Shown one piece after another: positions 5,384-20,015 of a DNA stretch of 21,296 nucleotides. The notes beneath the pieces were generated by a model that did not search any database, was not told the origin of the DNA, and saw only the letters and a list, made by a program, of their open reading frames with translations. Source of the stretch: Promethearchaeota archaeon (lineage in GTDB: Archaea; Asgardarchaeota; Lokiarchaeia; Sigyniarchaeales; SOKP01); NCBI GenBank assembly GCA_008080735.1, contig SHMW01000074.1, positions 1 to 21,296 on the forward strand, in the 5' to 3' direction. The translations under genes were made by a program, and so were the position numbers. Every line of letters starts with the position of its first letter. Position 1 is the first letter of the stretch.

Positions 5384-6946
5384 ATGATCAAACATATTTT
5401 ATTTATTCAACCCTTTACTTTGATTGAGAAACAATTATCTAACATTTTACTCGTATGGCCGTTTTATCTTGAAAATTATCTAAAATACAAATTTAAAAAA
5501 TTGGATTTCGAAACTTTATATCTACCAGCAGAACAGAAGAGAGGAAGTATTAAAATTAAAGATTATTCGTATAGTGAAATTGAAAAATTTAATTTTGAAA
5601 TGGACCGTCTCATCAGTCGATTGGATTTTGATCTTGATTCAGATACATTAATTTGTATTTCTTGCTCATTCAGTACCCTATATCTCCCTACTGAGATTAT
5701 TTTGAATTATTTTAAACAATTTCATGAGCAATGTCTGGTAGTAATTGGTGGTGCCCATACGACTGCTTGTCCTTCAGAATTCATTTCGAAACTTGGTTTA
5801 ATTGATTATATAGTTATGGGAGAGGGAGAGATTCCTCTTTCAATGATTATTCAAAACAATTCAAAAAAGCAAAAAAAACCAATCCTAATGAAAAAAAAAT
5901 ATATACCTAATCTTGATGATTTACCTCTTTTAACATTTGAAGATCTTTCCCTGAGCGAGTATATTGCAGATATTCCAAATTTAGCTATAAATCTAAGTAG
6001 AGGATGTCCATATACTTGCAATTTCTGTATGGAACAGAATCTAGGAAAAAATTGTAATGTAATAAAACCTTGGAGAGCCTATTCTCCTTTAAGAGCGGTA
6101 AAAGAAGTTGAACAAATGATACTTTTTGGAGAAGACCATAATGTAGAGCAATTTGGGTTTTTAGATAGTATTTTTGGCTTTAATAAATCATGGTTAGATT
6201 CTTTTCTGAAAAATTATGATTTTGAGAGTTTAACTTCAATTTGGACAGAAACAAGATTGGATATACTCAATGAGGATTTACTAAAACGACTCCAAAAGAA
6301 AAAAATTTATAACATGTATGGACTAGAACATTTTTCTTATACAATTTTAGAAATATTGAATAAAACCAACAATCCGGCGAATTATATAGGTACATTTAAA
6401 CGCATATTGAAACTTCATGATGATTTAAAGTATGAGTGTGTTCTAAACATTTTACTAAACCATCCAGGTGAAAACTCCGAAACTTTAGATCAGGCATTTG
6501 ATGGTATGAAAAAGATTATCGAAACGACTCATAGTAATAAAATAATCTTTAACATTAAACAATATCATAACTTTCCTGGTACTCCCTCATATGAAAATGA
6601 ATCTTATTATCACGAAAAGTTCGGTACACAATATTACCCAATTTCTAAAAATTGGTGGAAACATAAAGACTTGGAGTGTCAAAAATTCGGGGTTTTTTGC
6701 GTCCGCTCTTCACAAAATTTACCCCTAAGAGACTTTCTTTTATTATGGACTAATAAATACATCAAGATTAATAATAGAATAAAAGAACAAATTAAAAGTT
6801 TAGATATAGACACTTTTCATAAAATCTATGAGATCTCCGAATTGAATAAGATGAATAAAAATCTCAGAAATAGATATGAGAGGTTTTCATCTTTCTTAGA
6901 TAAGACGAAAATCGAAGAAGAAATAGTTATTACAGATTTAGCTTAA
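5384..6946 (+). CDS. Cobalamin-binding-domain radical SAM protein (class B methyltransferase-like)
   Basis: B12-binding motifs VIGGAHTT and VMGEGE, the RGCPYTCNFC CxxxCxxC motif, and downstream FLDSIF, ETRLD, GLE, HPGEN and FPGTP. Confidence 0.9.
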   Translation: MIKHILFIQPFTLIEKQLSNILLVWPFYLENYLKYKFKKLDFETLYLPAEQKRGSIKIKDYSYSEIEKFNFEMDRLISRLDFDLDSDTLICISCSFSTLYLPTEIILNYFKQFHEQCLVVIGGAHTTACPSEFISKLGLIDYIVMGEGEIPLSMIIQNNSKKQKKPILMKKKYIPNLDDLPLLTFEDLSLSEYIADIPNLAINLSRGCPYTCNFCMEQNLGKNCNVIKPWRAYSPLRAVKEVEQMILFGEDHNVEQFGFLDSIFGFNKSWLDSFLKNYDFESLTSIWTETRLDILNEDLLKRLQKKKIYNMYGLEHFSYTILEILNKTNNPANYIGTFKRILKLHDDLKYECVLNILLNHPGENSETLDQAFDGMKKIIETTHSNKIIFNIKQYHNFPGTPSYENESYYHEKFGTQYYPISKNWWKHKDLECQKFGVFCVRSSQNLPLRDFLLLWTNKYIKINNRIKEQIKSLDIDTFHKIYEISELNKMNKNLRNRYERFSSFLDKTKIEEEIVITDLA

Positions 6947-8351: not shown

Positions 8352-9989
8352 ATGAACTATGAACTAATAGATACAGATGCCTTGGGACGGATTGGTAAAT
8401 TAGAATATAAAAATTATGAACTGATTACTCCAAATTTGATACCTGTTATACATCCTTATGAGGAAAATTTGAAACCCTCTATAATAGAAAAAATTGGATT
8501 TGACTGTATTTTCACGAATTCGTACATTATTTACCAAGACAACCAAAAAAGAGAAAAGGTTTTAGATCTAGGATTAAAAGAATATTTAGGATTTAATGGA
8601 TTAATAGCAACGGATAGTGGAGCGTTTCAACAATATATATATAATGATAAAGATATTCACATAAGACCTAATGAAATCGAAAAATTTCAAGAAGATATTG
8701 GATCAGATTTCCCCGTAATATTAGATCTCCCTGTACAGCCCGATGATAATTACATTCAAGCAAAAAACAAAATAGAAACGAGCTTAGAAAGAGCAAAATT
8801 AAATATTAGTAGAAGAACAAAAGAATGCTGCTGGATTGGACCTATACACGGGGCAAAATATCCAGAACTATTAAAAGTCAGTTCTAAAGAAATGAGTAAA
8901 TTAGATTTTGGAATTTATGCAATCGGAGGATTGGTGAAGTTCTTTCTTGATTATAGATTTGACGAAGTCTTAAAAATCTTATTAACAGTTAAGAAACATA
9001 TAGTCTCCAACAAACCACTTCACATGTTTGGATTAGGGTTACCGCAATTCTTTTCATTAGCCGTTGCTTGTGGATGTGATTTAATGGATTCAGCCGCATA
9101 TATTCTCTATGCTAAAGAAAACCGATATTTTACTCTCTCAACAGGTACAAAACTATTAGGTGAGTTAAAAGAATTTCCTTGTTGTTGCCCCATGTGTTCC
9201 AATTACACACCAGATGAAGTGAGACAATGTGAACCAAGTGAAAAAACGCGATTATTAGCAATACACAATTTGCATGTTTCTTACTCAGAATTAAAAAATA
9301 TTAGACAAGCAATTTATGACGGAAATTTATGGGAACTAGTTGAGCAACGAATTAGGTCTCACCCAAAATTATATGAAAGTATTAATATAATTAAAAAGAA
9401 TGTCCTATTGTTTGAGAGATATGAGAAAATTTATAAAAATCATGGGAGATTATTAGCTTCTATTGAGAGCATTCAACGACCTCTCTTAAAAAGATATAAA
9501 CAGAGAATAAAAAAGCGTTATAGAATCCCAAATAGTACAAGGTATCTAATCATTTTACCTGAATTAGACATAAGAGGTAAAAAATCCCCCTCTACAAAGA
9601 AATGGCTAAATCAAATAAATAATTGTACCATCCCGAGAGACATGATTCATATTCTTTTCTTTTCGAAATTCTTCGGATTAATTCCAATCGAATTAATAAA
9701 TACATATCCTATGGGTCAACATGAATCTATCTCATTAAATTTTTTTGATAAAGAAGAATATATGGATGAATATGTTGAGATATTTATTTCCGTAATTAAT
9801 TCCTATAGACTATCTAAAAAAATAGCCTATTTATATCCTAAATCTTTCATAAACCAATTTTATGAGGAAGAAAAATTTAGAGATTCTTTTTATGAATCAA
9901 TTTTTAAAGTTTTATCTACTAAATTTAAAATTCCAATTAGACAATTCGATATAATTAGTAATATAATTGAATATTTTGAGAAAGAATGA
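8352..9989 (+). CDS. tgtA: Archaeosine tRNA-guanine(15) transglycosylase (ArcTGT)
   Basis: GRIGKL, TPNLIPV, TDSGAFQ, LDLP, HMFGLG, GCDLMDSAAY, Zn site CCCPMC...HN, and LWELVEQR.RSHP.L. Confidence 0.95.
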   Translation: MNYELIDTDALGRIGKLEYKNYELITPNLIPVIHPYEENLKPSIIEKIGFDCIFTNSYIIYQDNQKREKVLDLGLKEYLGFNGLIATDSGAFQQYIYNDKDIHIRPNEIEKFQEDIGSDFPVILDLPVQPDDNYIQAKNKIETSLERAKLNISRRTKECCWIGPIHGAKYPELLKVSSKEMSKLDFGIYAIGGLVKFFLDYRFDEVLKILLTVKKHIVSNKPLHMFGLGLPQFFSLAVACGCDLMDSAAYILYAKENRYFTLSTGTKLLGELKEFPCCCPMCSNYTPDEVRQCEPSEKTRLLAIHNLHVSYSELKNIRQAIYDGNLWELVEQRIRSHPKLYESINIIKKNVLLFERYEKIYKNHGRLLASIESIQRPLLKRYKQRIKKRYRIPNSTRYLIILPELDIRGKKSPSTKKWLNQINNCTIPRDMIHILFFSKFFGLIPIELINTYPMGQHESISLNFFDKEEYMDEYVEIFISVINSYRLSKKIAYLYPKSFINQFYEEEKFRDSFYESIFKVLSTKFKIPIRQFDIISNIIEYFEKE

Positions 9990-10420
9990 TGATATTGGAA
10001 CGAATATATGCAAAAGGTCAAAAAAATGTCAGGTGCAGACATAAAACTACAATTGAGATTACCAAAGATAGTTATTTAACTCCTAAAGGAGACTGTATCT
10101 TAGGAATTGAAGCATCAAAAGCTTGTTATGATTTAGATGCGAATTTTAAAAAGTATCTCAGGAAAGGTAAAAAAGTCGAAGTAATAATCAAATATCACGA
10201 CCTTTTTGATACCTTTTTTGGATTTGGACATAATCAATTAGGTTTGACCAGTAAAAAAGATATGGTATTCAGAAAAAGTGATTTTCTCTGCGATAGGACT
10301 GTTCTAATAAATTGTACGAAATCATCCTCGGAATTATCAAGAAAACTGGTTAATGAGATAAAAAAAACCCAAAATAGATTTTCTATATTATTTAAGAAAG
10401 CTGATTTTAGTAATGAATAG
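9986..10420 (+). CDS. DUF371 family protein
   Basis: NV...HKTTIEITKDSYLTPKGDCILG and MVFRKSDF.CDRT motifs. ATGA overlap with the tgtA stop. Confidence 0.88.
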   Translation: MMILERIYAKGQKNVRCRHKTTIEITKDSYLTPKGDCILGIEASKACYDLDANFKKYLRKGKKVEVIIKYHDLFDTFFGFGHNQLGLTSKKDMVFRKSDFLCDRTVLINCTKSSSELSRKLVNEIKKTQNRFSILFKKADFSNE

Positions 10421-17866: not shown

Positions 17867-18250
17867 TTGGGCATTACTAATGATGATATTGAAAAAATTT
17901 CCCCCGAAATAACATTTATTACTTCGAATGCAGAAATTGAGGCAATCGCATTAGTTTCTTCAGAGGGATATCAGATCGCTTTTTCCGCCTTACCTCAATA
18001 TCAAGTCGATGGGGATCAATTTTGTGGTCTCGCATCAGCACTATTAATGACCGGAAGATCCACCATTCAGCAGCTTTTCCAAGAAGATCTTAGTGAAATT
18101 ATATTACGTGCTGAGGATGGATACATTGTCATAACTAATGCAGGGAAATTAGTTATTGTCTGTGCGGGAACGGAGATTGATACGATGATGAAAACCGTTA
18201 AAGTTATGAGAGTTGCTGCAAAAAATTTAATTAAAATTTTTGAAGAATAA
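17867..18250 (+). CDS. Roadblock/LC7 (MglB-like) domain protein
   Basis: IEAIALVSSEGYQIA, D...GLASALL..G, L.EIILRAEDGYIVITNAG and a C-terminal helix VMRVAAKNL; 127 aa, TTG start. Confidence 0.88.
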   Translation: MGITNDDIEKISPEITFITSNAEIEAIALVSSEGYQIAFSALPQYQVDGDQFCGLASALLMTGRSTIQQLFQEDLSEIILRAEDGYIVITNAGKLVIVCAGTEIDTMMKTVKVMRVAAKNLIKIFEE

Positions 18251-18403
18251 TTTCTTCCAGCATCCGCATTTAAAGAATCACTAAAATAAAACCCTTTTTC
18301 ACTATTTTCTCTCTAATTAAGAAATGTCATTTTCAACGAAAAGCATAGATTTTTAAATTTTAAAAAATAACTAAAACTAAATAGTTCCTATAATATAAGC
18401 ACA

Positions 18404-18460
18404 ATGGCTCCTGTAAAAATCAATTCTTGGCGTTGGCAGTGGGCTTGGCGTTGGCAATAA
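18404..18460 (+). CDS. Putative Trp-rich leader peptide (MAPVKINSWRWQWAWRWQ) of trpB2
   Basis: ATG GCT CCT GTA AAA ATC AAT TCT TGG CGT TGG CAG TGG GCT TGG CGT TGG CAA TAA: five TGG codons in the last 10 sense codons, directly upstream of a Trp synthase gene. Confidence 0.85.
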   Translation: MAPVKINSWRWQWAWRWQ

Positions 18461-18543
18461 AACGCCTTTGCAATGGACTATTTCAATTGATGTCTTTTTT
18501 CTGATATTTTGATTGCGTTTTCAAAATATTAACATTTTTATTT
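18426..18543 (+). promoter_or_regulatory. Candidate attenuator RNA (alternative pairings plus hairpin and U-tract)
   Basis: GGCGTT (18429-34 and 18447-52) is complementary to AACGCC (18461-66). AAAACGC (18459-65) is alternatively complementary to GCGTTTT (18515-21). Hairpin ATATTTTGA (18504-12) / TCAAAATAT (18521-29) is followed by TTTTTATTT (18535-43), and there is a T6 tract at 18495-18500. Confidence 0.6.
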
Positions 18544-18611
18544 AAATGCATTAATACTATTGATTCCCAATTTTATTATGAAACACATTAAATAAAAAAA
18601 ACGTGTAAATT

Positions 18612-20015
18612 ATGACAGACTATTTTAACGCAAGGATTTTATTAGATCCGAAAGAAGTACCAAAACAATGGGTGAATATTCTACCAGATTTGCCCACACC
18701 TATGACGCCCTTAATTAACCCGATGGATGGGAAACCCGCACCATTTGAATTAGCTGCGGCAATTTTTCCAAAAGAATGCGTAATACAAGAGGTTTCCCAA
18801 GAACCTACCATTCCTATCCCTAAGGAATTAAGGGAGATATATGCGAGATCACATAGACCTACTCCGCTTCACAGAGCATATGGACTTGAAAAGGAATTAG
18901 GAGTAGAAGGAGAGGAAATAAAAATCTTTTATAAGAATGAATCTGTCTCTCCAACAGGCTCACATAAACCGAATACAGCTCTTGCCCAAGCATATTATGC
19001 AAAGGCGGATGGAATAAATGAGTTAGTGACTGAAACTGGCGCAGGGCAATGGGGATCGGGTCTTTCATATGGGTGTTCGCTTTTTAACATTACATGTACG
19101 GTGTATATGGTGAGAGCAAGCTTCCTCCAAAAACCAGGGCGAAAAATTCTCATGCGATCATATGATGGAGAGGTTCATGCTTCTCCTTCACGTTTTACGG
19201 AATCTGGAAGGAGTTATTATGAAAATGATCCGGACCATCCTGGGAGCTTGGGTATCGCTATTTCAGAGGCAGTAGAGCATAGTTTAAGAAGTGAAAAAAT
19301 CAGATATTCCCTAGGTAGTGTTGTGAATTTTGTATGCCTACATCAGACAGTAGTAGGACAAGAAACTCAGCAACAACTCAAGAAAGCCGGAATTGACCAG
19401 CCAGATATTGTAATCGGATGTATGGGGGGTGGTTCTAATTTTTCTGGAATGGCGATTCCGTTTGCTCGAGATAAAATTCGAGGGGATGCTCCAGACATAC
19501 AGATTATAGGTGTAGAACCACGAGCATGTCCTAGTGTATGTAAAGGAAAGTACACATGGGATTATGGAGATTCCGCTAAAAAGGCTCCTATCTTGAAAAT
19601 GCATACTCTTGGTCACAATTTTATTCCCAGCCCAATCCACGCTGGTGGCCTACGTTACCATGGTATTGCACCTATCGTATCCAATCTGTACAATAATGGA
19701 GTAATTGAAGCCACGATGCACCATCAGCTTGAAGTGATAGAGGCGGGTATGTTATTCGCAAAGGCGGAAGGAATCTTACCTGCCCCCGAAACTAATCACG
19801 CGGTAAAAGAAGCGATGAATCAAGCTCTTAAAGCTAAAGAGAAGAACGAGAAGAAGACCATCGTCTTTAACTTCAGCGGTCATGGCTATTTTGATCTACT
19901 TGCTTACAAGGAATACATGACTGGAGAACTGGAGAACTTCGAACTTTCTGAGGAAAAAATCCAAAAATCAATCAATGACGCAGATATGCCTCAGATTGAT
20001 GAATCTGCATTTTAA
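18612..20015 (+). CDS. trpB2: Tryptophan synthase beta chain, type 2 (standalone TrpB2)
   Basis: VPKQWVNI..DLP, RPTPLHRA..LE, SPTGSHKPNTA (PLP lysine), TETGAGQWG, GGGSNF, HAGGLRYHG, APETNHA and FNFSGHG. No trpA in the window. Confidence 0.97.
   Translation: MTDYFNARILLDPKEVPKQWVNILPDLPTPMTPLINPMDGKPAPFELAAAIFPKECVIQEVSQEPTIPIPKELREIYARSHRPTPLHRAYGLEKELGVEGEEIKIFYKNESVSPTGSHKPNTALAQAYYAKADGINELVTETGAGQWGSGLSYGCSLFNITCTVYMVRASFLQKPGRKILMRSYDGEVHASPSRFTESGRSYYENDPDHPGSLGIAISEAVEHSLRSEKIRYSLGSVVNFVCLHQTVVGQETQQQLKKAGIDQPDIVIGCMGGGSNFSGMAIPFARDKIRGDAPDIQIIGVEPRACPSVCKGKYTWDYGDSAKKAPILKMHTLGHNFIPSPIHAGGLRYHGIAPIVSNLYNNGVIEATMHHQLEVIEAGMLFAKAEGILPAPETNHAVKEAMNQALKAKEKNEKKTIVFNFSGHGYFDLLAYKEYMTGELENFELSEEKIQKSINDADMPQIDESAF

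Follow-up and report, generated by a model that had tools for sequence, protein, structure and literature searches.

A putative tryptophan-sensing leader peptide upstream of trpB2 in a Promethearchaeia archaeon, with candidate sister leaders at other amino-acid genes

The amino-acid leaders of bacteria, E. coli trpL (Rfam Trp_leader) and those of the his, leu, thr, ilv and pheST genes, place a short upstream ORF, with its cognate codons near the 3′ end, before a biosynthetic operon; the Trp codons of trpL stand in tandem, and a terminator hairpin with a U tail follows the ORF. The element we describe here, a Trp-rich uORF upstream of trpB2 in a Promethearchaeia (Loki) genome, is built on the same general plan. 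It also shares with them a hairpin that takes in the stop and the last of the control codons (P1b below, which is like the 1:2 protector), and the repetition of the design for several amino acids. It differs from trpL in its archaeal host and TATA promoter, in its Trp codons, which alternate and number 2-6 among leaders, and in a helix that surrounds the whole uORF, as well as in having no GC-rich terminator with a U tail, no covarying 2:3 helix and no match in Rfam. Since we looked for the antiterminator, the intrinsic terminator and the Rfam homology and found none of them, we do not count the element in the trpL family, even if it would work as the leader-peptide attenuators of bacteria do.

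Two other bacterial systems come close in different ways. The Rho-dependent leaders (E. coli tnaC; Salmonella corA, PMC13675443) are alike in the pyrimidine-rich untranslated spacer after the uORF, in lacking an intrinsic terminator and in the availability of a factor that loads on nascent RNA (aCPSF1/FttA in our case), but this factor would be a U-preferring nuclease and not Rho; an untranslated U-rich tract after the uORF and an encoded aCPSF1 were both found. The polycysteine sORF ‘ribulon’ of mycobacteria (bioRxiv 10.1101/834739) likewise consists of several unlinked loci, each with a cognate-codon sORF and a pausing ribosome, but those transcripts are leaderless and free a sequestered RBS, whereas the transcript here is predicted to have a 5′ UTR of about 24 nt, and an RBS-sequestering helix was looked for and not found.

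In archaea, trp control is known through DNA-binding proteins, TrpY in Methanothermobacter and Tar in Thermococcus (PMC6737238), which have the same target genes as the uORF but act at initiation, on the DNA. No attenuation was known in archaea according to a 2021 paper by Blombach et al. (PMC8448881), and the literature within our coverage, which leaves most subscription papers outside, holds leader-peptide attenuators from bacteria only and no archaeal case, in line with an earlier note on this DNA that took the mechanism as not established there. Archaeal Ribo-seq papers report uORFs, and no amino-acid-sensing leader among them. An archaeal leader of this sort is likely to be novel. The nearest archaeal hint of codon sensing reportedly comes from Xie and Reeve in 2005, who are said to have suggested that the single Trp at codon 2 of TrpY makes its translation dependent on Trp-tRNA.

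The uORF, its gene and its promoter

The window (i.e., the whole stretch of DNA that was analysed, 21,296 nt) contains the following features, all on the plus strand:

18350-18357 (+): TATA box, a T-run then AAA, conserved 50-65 nt upstream of the uORF start, in invariant alignment columns
18404-18460 (+): Trp leader uORF, 18 codons, five of them Trp, conserved in orthologous loci
18612-20015 (+): trpB2, encoding a stand-alone TrpB-like PLP enzyme; no other Trp-pathway gene was found in the genome

Most of what the earlier note had read from this locus was borne out. The uORF translates exactly as it had it, with Trp at codons 9, 11, 13, 15 and 17 (i.e., every second codon of the latter half) and a TAA stop; the 13-nt direct repeat lies inside it, at 18426-38 and 18444-56, and 151 nt separate its stop from the trpB2 ATG at 18612. 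The patch from 18426 to 18480 is indeed GC-rich, at 53% against 27% for the intergenic region, and there is no SD-like word before the uORF ATG in the window. The run of five TGG at 6-nt spacing is the sole one of its kind in the 4.1-Mb genome, where the uORF ranks second among 9211 intergenic short ORFs scored genome-wide on single-residue clustering.

The downstream gene was rightly named, as it lies above the TrpB2 equivalog cut-offs of PRK12391 (642 bits; cut-off 366) and TIGR01415. A search of this genome, which is 93% complete, found neither TrpA nor TrpB1 nor any member of the chorismate-binding TrpE family, which leaves trpB2 as the one Trp-forming gene seen in it. The reaction of TrpB, which joins indole and serine (PMC1854888), suggests indole salvage as its role. 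The named relatives with 74-92% TrpB2 identity are Promethearchaeota/Promethearchaeia (Loki) MAGs, and in most members of the family a 127-aa gene (17867-18250, plus strand, in the window) stands upstream of trpB2; it looks Roadblock/LC7-like by eye, its NCBIfam match being weak and below cut-off.

The TATA box lies about 53 nt upstream of the uORF ATG here and at offsets of −50 to −65 in 21 of 22 loci. With standard archaeal spacing, transcription is predicted to start near 18378-18382, which gives a transcript that probably has a 5′ UTR of about 24 nt and is not leaderless. The conserved box thus leaves the leaderless transcript proposed earlier without support, and the TATA-like CTAAATA (18377-83) proposed with it falls at the predicted start site itself. 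Contigs of RNA libraries from the relative G055, a closed genome (four runs, all from the same study), link both trpD and the trpB2 locus to the 3′ part of the leader, a junction that does not by itself prove a single transcript, and their depths cannot rank leader against gene. All of these contigs share an end inside the G055 uORF, which was considered as a start site and rejected: the trpD and trpB2 leaders have a stretch of at least 37 nt in common, and the contig end sits a single k-mer away from its edge, for which reason it is read as an assembly branch.

A conserved reading frame at Asgard tryptophan genes

The comparison across genomes used one fixed rule (a uORF of 8-50 codons that has two or more Trp among its last 12 and stops 60-450 nt before the gene). 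By this rule a Trp uORF precedes trpB2 in 41 of the 55 class-level loci, compared to 4 of 30 trpB2 loci in the non-Asgard phylum of a Methanoregulaceae MAG (all four mutually unlike) and 18 of 400 random genes of the source genome; the loci come from related genomes, so that the counts are not independent trials and overstate independence. The uORF is also found in 11 of the 11 trpD operons having upstream DNA, two-Trp leaders before trpD in L060, L062 and L065 being recovered by a covariance model plus re-reading, and one genome has a second Trp uORF before a split-off trpEG. The trait occurs in several families and at three or more different target genes, and the uORF follows trpB2, trpD and trpE through differing neighbourhoods. 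This way, the comparison bears out the expectation that in-frame Trp codons, together with the start codon, would be kept at trpB2 and trp operons across the class, and it supports the core of the earlier proposal, a Trp-codon uORF controlling a trpB2 of the indole-salvage type in an archaeon.

Three genera hold family members in which the trpB2 leader is lost, and these genera mostly have the full operon; in several of the genomes concerned a homologous leader stands before trpD instead (model R1, E 1e-13 to 1e-25). It seems that the module was either transferred or copied from one of these two places, trpB2 and the trpD operon, to the other. Before trpB2, decayed remnants with hairpin P3 kept and the uORF gone are seen in L010, L015 and L021, and intact leader homologues before trpD in L062 and L065-L068. 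In G055, the leaders of trpB2 (L043) and trpD (L069:10831-10920) are near-identical across about 90 nt, which suggests recent copying or gene conversion. The trp operon of the same genome contains a 923-aa ORF (L069:6751-9522, minus strand), apparently a fusion of TrpC, TrpF and TrpB1. Between the Trp leader and trpD of several operons sits a short, related-looking frame of about 80-90 codons (e.g., L058, about 9850-10300; L067, about 6450-6690). One 1.8-kb contig titled WOR-3 bacterium (L076) encodes the same leader peptide as the Loki locus L077, and its TrpB2 identity (74%) equals that of L077; it is probably mis-binned.

Beyond the class, five other Asgard families have multi-Trp uORFs before trpB2 and a single-Trp uORF recurs in a sixth, while no convincing Trp uORF was found before trpB2 in eight others. 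The TRP box of the TrpY regulon has the consensus TGTACA, and such boxes occur upstream of trpB2 in other Asgard families (L104, L107-L110 at about 477-520, L098, L099, L088 and L089), mostly in tandem with a 10-nt period and, in family f12, about 290-310 nt upstream; we take them to be like the TrpY box. As f12 has both these boxes and a conserved single-Trp uORF, it may control trpB2 in two layers.

That the conserved feature is a reading frame, and not only a run of TGG, is indicated by its two ends. Among the 40 loci with a W-x-W cluster, an in-frame ATG precedes it in 34 and GTG or TTG in the other 6, and a stop follows the last Trp within five codons in all 40; for random intergenic TGG the corresponding figures are 13% for the ATG, 30% for the stop and 3.4% for both. 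The start column is aligned within the family, indels between the ATG and the Trp block measure 0, 3 or 6 nt, and the N-terminal residues drift while start codon, frame and stop are retained. On the other hand, 84 of the 99 TGG spacings are exactly 6 nt (7 of the other 15 are multiples of three) and the codon after Trp begins with C in 77 of 86 cases, which is what one might see if the 6-nt UGGC repeat were the site of a Trp-activated RNA-binding protein (TRAP-like) or a DNA operator, with the ORF incidental. We consider this very improbable. An ATG and a near stop in 34 of 40 loci contrast with the 3.4% expected, the aligned AUG column is paired by a conserved CAU, and other amino-acid genes carry different, cognate codon runs. 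There is, moreover, no TGTACA upstream of trpB2 in the window locus (L001), as would suit a DNA operator, nor does 18380-18611 contain the (G/U)AG repeat of the Bacillus TRAP leader, with its about eleven triplets and 2-nt spacers. The spacing of TGG modulo three, tried as a separate test of the frame, was set aside as uninformative, nearly all spacings being 6 nt and stray TGGs entering the windows.

The same alternation could in principle belong to a nascent peptide that arrests from within the ribosome tunnel on sensing free Trp or indole, like TnaC or the fungal arginine attenuator peptide. A C-terminal W-(P/A/Q)-W-(R/H) motif does persist across families, with Pro common next to the stop, but any of R, Q, P, H, A and C may follow Trp, the peptides have between 2 and 6 Trp residues, their N-termini are not conserved, and the parallel leaders are plain runs of Leu, Ile or Val. 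Given that the residue after Trp varies and yet its codon starts with C, the alternation looks like a requirement of RNA pairing rather than a peptide motif. All of this makes peptide arrest, too, quite implausible. As a system for comparison, TnaC senses excess Trp through its peptide and induces a catabolic operon, i.e., with the opposite sign. W-x-W and Trp/Arg-rich motifs occur as well in RiPP precursors and antimicrobial-like peptides, and 11 kb away is a gene that by eye looks radical-SAM-like (CxxxCxxC motif); even so, the uORF tracks trpB2, trpD and trpE and not a maturase, and its peptide varies from 11 to more than 30 residues. A free peptide product was rejected on position and a chance ORF is excluded by the three counts obtained under the one rule (41/55 against 4/30 and 18/400), which leaves this pair of explanations with almost no probability.

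Leader RNA and its possible outputs

Because the plain MFE of the window leader is unremarkable against shuffles (z −1.67), our claims about structure rest on covariation. The elements of the leader are:

18379-18388 (+): P0 5′ arm, one strand of a long-range helix, lying in the 5′ UTR where the uORF ribosome would load
18475-18483 (+): P0 3′ arm, preceded in most relatives by a CAU pairing with the uORF AUG
18406-18444 (+): hairpin P1a, codons 2-4 paired with Trp-Gln-Trp codons, predicted in several loci
18447-18466 (+): hairpin P1b, Trp-Arg codons paired with the 6 nt after the stop, the stop codon in the loop
18490-18545 (+): U-rich spacer holding a variable AU hairpin, P2 (18503-18530); candidate site of aCPSF1/FttA loading and cleavage
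18547-18590 (+): conserved hairpin P3, bulged by 3 nt, its 5-nt loop (18563-67) also conserved and its 3′ flank A-rich, not U-rich

P0 encloses the uORF, in that the 5′ UTR, and in most loci the AUG too, pairs with the segment just 3′ of the stop. Its cognate arms form a duplex of −9.9 kcal/mol against −7.2 for non-cognate arms (22 loci), a difference reached in 0 of 20000 permutations, with the proviso that the loci are kin and their relatedness is uncorrected; the helix is weaker in this window (−6.7), and three loci are without it in this register. P1b has 91% of cells paired and two compensatory pairs, slid controls giving 29-61%. P3 is 90% paired and has changes on both sides in 6 of its 12 pairs (0 of 500 shuffles); its upper 8 pairs were recovered independently by RNAalifold, and it is shared by the leaders of the trpD operons. 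In most relatives an SD-like word lies outside P3, after A-rich sequence. A conserved ATG about 35 nt before trpB2 was considered as a second uORF and rejected, since it is the 3′ arm of P3 and turns to ACG or ACA along with its partner.

P1b resembles the 1:2 hairpin, and in many loci the post-stop segment is complementary to the loop and 3′ arm of P3, so that a classical attenuator of the E. coli type, with a 2:3 antiterminator and P3 as the 3:4 intrinsic terminator, has to be weighed among the outputs of the same sensor. P3, however, is AU-rich and followed by A's, and there are 0 sites with a GC-rich hairpin and a U run; no match to Rfam Trp_leader or another leader model appears at E≤10 except at chance level, and the mutually exclusive 2:3 pairing does not covary (p=0.28-0.31). 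In a search for a covarying alternative helix, which found none, 9 of 10 segment pairs gave p>0.17 and one p=0.006 before correction for ten tests. When ribosome footprints are masked in equilibrium folding, P3 persists in all displayed loci but L005, whose constrained fold shows a switch. An alternative in which the P3 loop would change partners to pair with the post-stop segment, good by eye, was dropped, as it does not covary and appears in one displayed fold only. We regard a classical attenuator as improbable, and termination at an intrinsic hairpin, which the earlier note had listed among the possible outputs, finds no support here.

We think it highly probable, from the conservation of the uORF and from bacterial analogy, that the 5′ leader of trpB2 contains a Trp sensor read by the ribosome (i.e., a leader-peptide attenuator), whatever its output. 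The step of sensing itself, in which the time the ribosome dwells on the Trp codons would decide whether P0 and P1 close, we hold with the same high confidence, on conservation and bacterial precedent. Transcription would start about 24 nt before the uORF, and a ribosome would load on the nascent RNA before P0 closes over the start region. With plentiful Trp-tRNA, the ribosome would pass the Trp codons, stop and leave; closure of P1b and P0 would keep ribosomes from loading again, and the polymerase would trail about 150 nt of untranslated, U-rich RNA, on which aCPSF1/FttA would load, cleave and terminate transcription before trpB2. When Trp-tRNA is scarce, the ribosome would stay on the Trp codons and bar P0 and P1, termination would not occur, and trpB2 would be on, with the cell making Trp from indole and serine.

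Factor-dependent termination in the U tract is our leading guess for the output, with confidence about evenly balanced. It is preferred because the spacer after the stop is about 50% U in four of the five leader classes, aCPSF1 is encoded in the genome (above cut-off), aCPSF1 binds nascent RNA that is rich in U, up to about 36 nt from the polymerase, its exclusion by a coupled ribosome having been hypothesised (PMC11616081), and in Saccharolobus its recruitment near promoters is linked to a lower output of mRNA (PMC8448881). The tract holds 21.8 U per 40 nt (22 loci), compared to 14.6 at −130 to −90 of genes and 16.1 after stop codons genome-wide. Against this step, the tract begins about 30 nt past the stop, beyond the cover of a stalled ribosome, and the leuA leaders, at 33% U, are not U-rich. 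In equilibrium folds, moreover, the accessibility of the U tract does not change between stalled and released ribosome in any of the five leader classes (0.42-0.77 unpaired in both states).

The same Trp-codon sensor might instead act on translation or mRNA stability, with the stalled ribosome altering access to the trpB2 start by way of re-initiation, of shunting past P2/P3 or of protecting the RNA from cleavage. A terminator hairpin with a U tail was not found, in each leader class examined a conserved hairpin ends some 15-40 nt upstream of the main start and an A-rich spacer fills the gap, and the mycobacterial polycysteine leaders offer a precedent (bioRxiv 10.1101/834739). Yet neither the SD nor the start of trpB2 lies under a helix in the consensus, leader segments show no covarying pairing with the SD region (p 0.28-0.80), and re-initiation after a completed uORF would turn the gene on when Trp is plentiful, which is the wrong sign for a biosynthetic gene. 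We judge such an output unlikely, though worth keeping in view. Returning to aCPSF1, the full proposal, in which Asgard archaea have leader-peptide attenuators genome-wide (for Trp, Leu, Ile, branched-chain/Ala and probably Phe and Val) whose ribosomes gate aCPSF1 termination and not a terminator hairpin, is put forward tentatively, with slightly less than even confidence.

If it is correct, this would be, as far as we know, the first amino-acid-sensing attenuation in Archaea, and it would link bacterial attenuation to the nuclease-driven premature termination and uORF control of eukaryotes, aCPSF1 being a nuclease of the CPSF73/Integrator type. Found in the closest lineage to eukaryotes, conserved leaders specific for amino acids would supply archaeal gene regulation with a layer so far missing, and they bear on the origin of eukaryotic uORF control. 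They would also serve as natural reporters for transcription-translation coupling and its control by aCPSF1/FttA. Being short, they are testable, and two closed genomes, G050 and G055, both carry the element.

Sister leaders in the same genome

The Trp leader is very probably one of a set of cognate amino-acid leaders in Loki/Asgard archaea. A genome-wide ranking blind to function placed uORFs rich in Ala/Val/Ile/Leu, Leu and Val near the top, and a second pass added one rich in Ile and one in Ile/Leu/Val; their downstream genes include ilvE, leuA, citramalate synthase (cimA) and the gamma subunit of a pyruvate/2-ketoisovalerate oxidoreductase (porC/vorC). In our view this match between codons and pathway is the strongest argument for ribosomes reading the leaders as amino-acid gauges. 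No cognate uORF was found at the ValRS, LeuRS and MetRS genes of the source genome. In the conservation counts that follow, the source genome is included.

A Leu-run uORF (G000:C4:16808-16918, minus strand, in L072) stands 91 nt before leuA and is kept in 20 of 20 orthologous loci; a covarying-looking hairpin begins a few nt past its stop. An Ile-run uORF (G000:C12:46855-46911, minus strand, in L170) precedes cimA by 114 nt and is found in 13 of 14 loci, the leader having a near-invariant 13-bp stem around a U-rich loop. The Ala/Val/Ile/Leu uORF (G000:C3:33216-33302, plus strand, in L071), 135 nt before one of two ilvE paralogues, is conserved in 10 of the 13 best loci. Its spacer can form two crossing helices, one favoured in short nascent RNA and the other in the full leader, which makes it the best candidate for a switch among the leaders, as far as the folding models go. 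The Ile/Leu/Val uORF (G000:C1:126919-127026, minus strand, in L171), about 80 nt before the porC/vorC gamma subunit, is kept in 10 of 14 loci, and its presence before this gene suggests that the enzyme is used for branched-chain amino-acid synthesis.

Some further short ORFs are worth recording. A Val-run uORF (L073:625-711, plus strand) precedes a 45-aa ORF (L073:868-1005, plus strand); the pair is kept in three genomes of the genus and was not found in the others searched, and the ORF is a candidate small protein or gene remnant under putative Val control. A 39-aa ORF of the source genome (G000:C75:5335-5454, minus strand) is metallothionein-like, with three Cys-Lys-Cys-Gly-Gly-Gly-Cys modules. 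Finally, a Phe-rich uORF (G000:C55:4739-4846, minus strand), with six Phe codons in a stretch of eight, stands 217 nt upstream of a gene of 513 aa.
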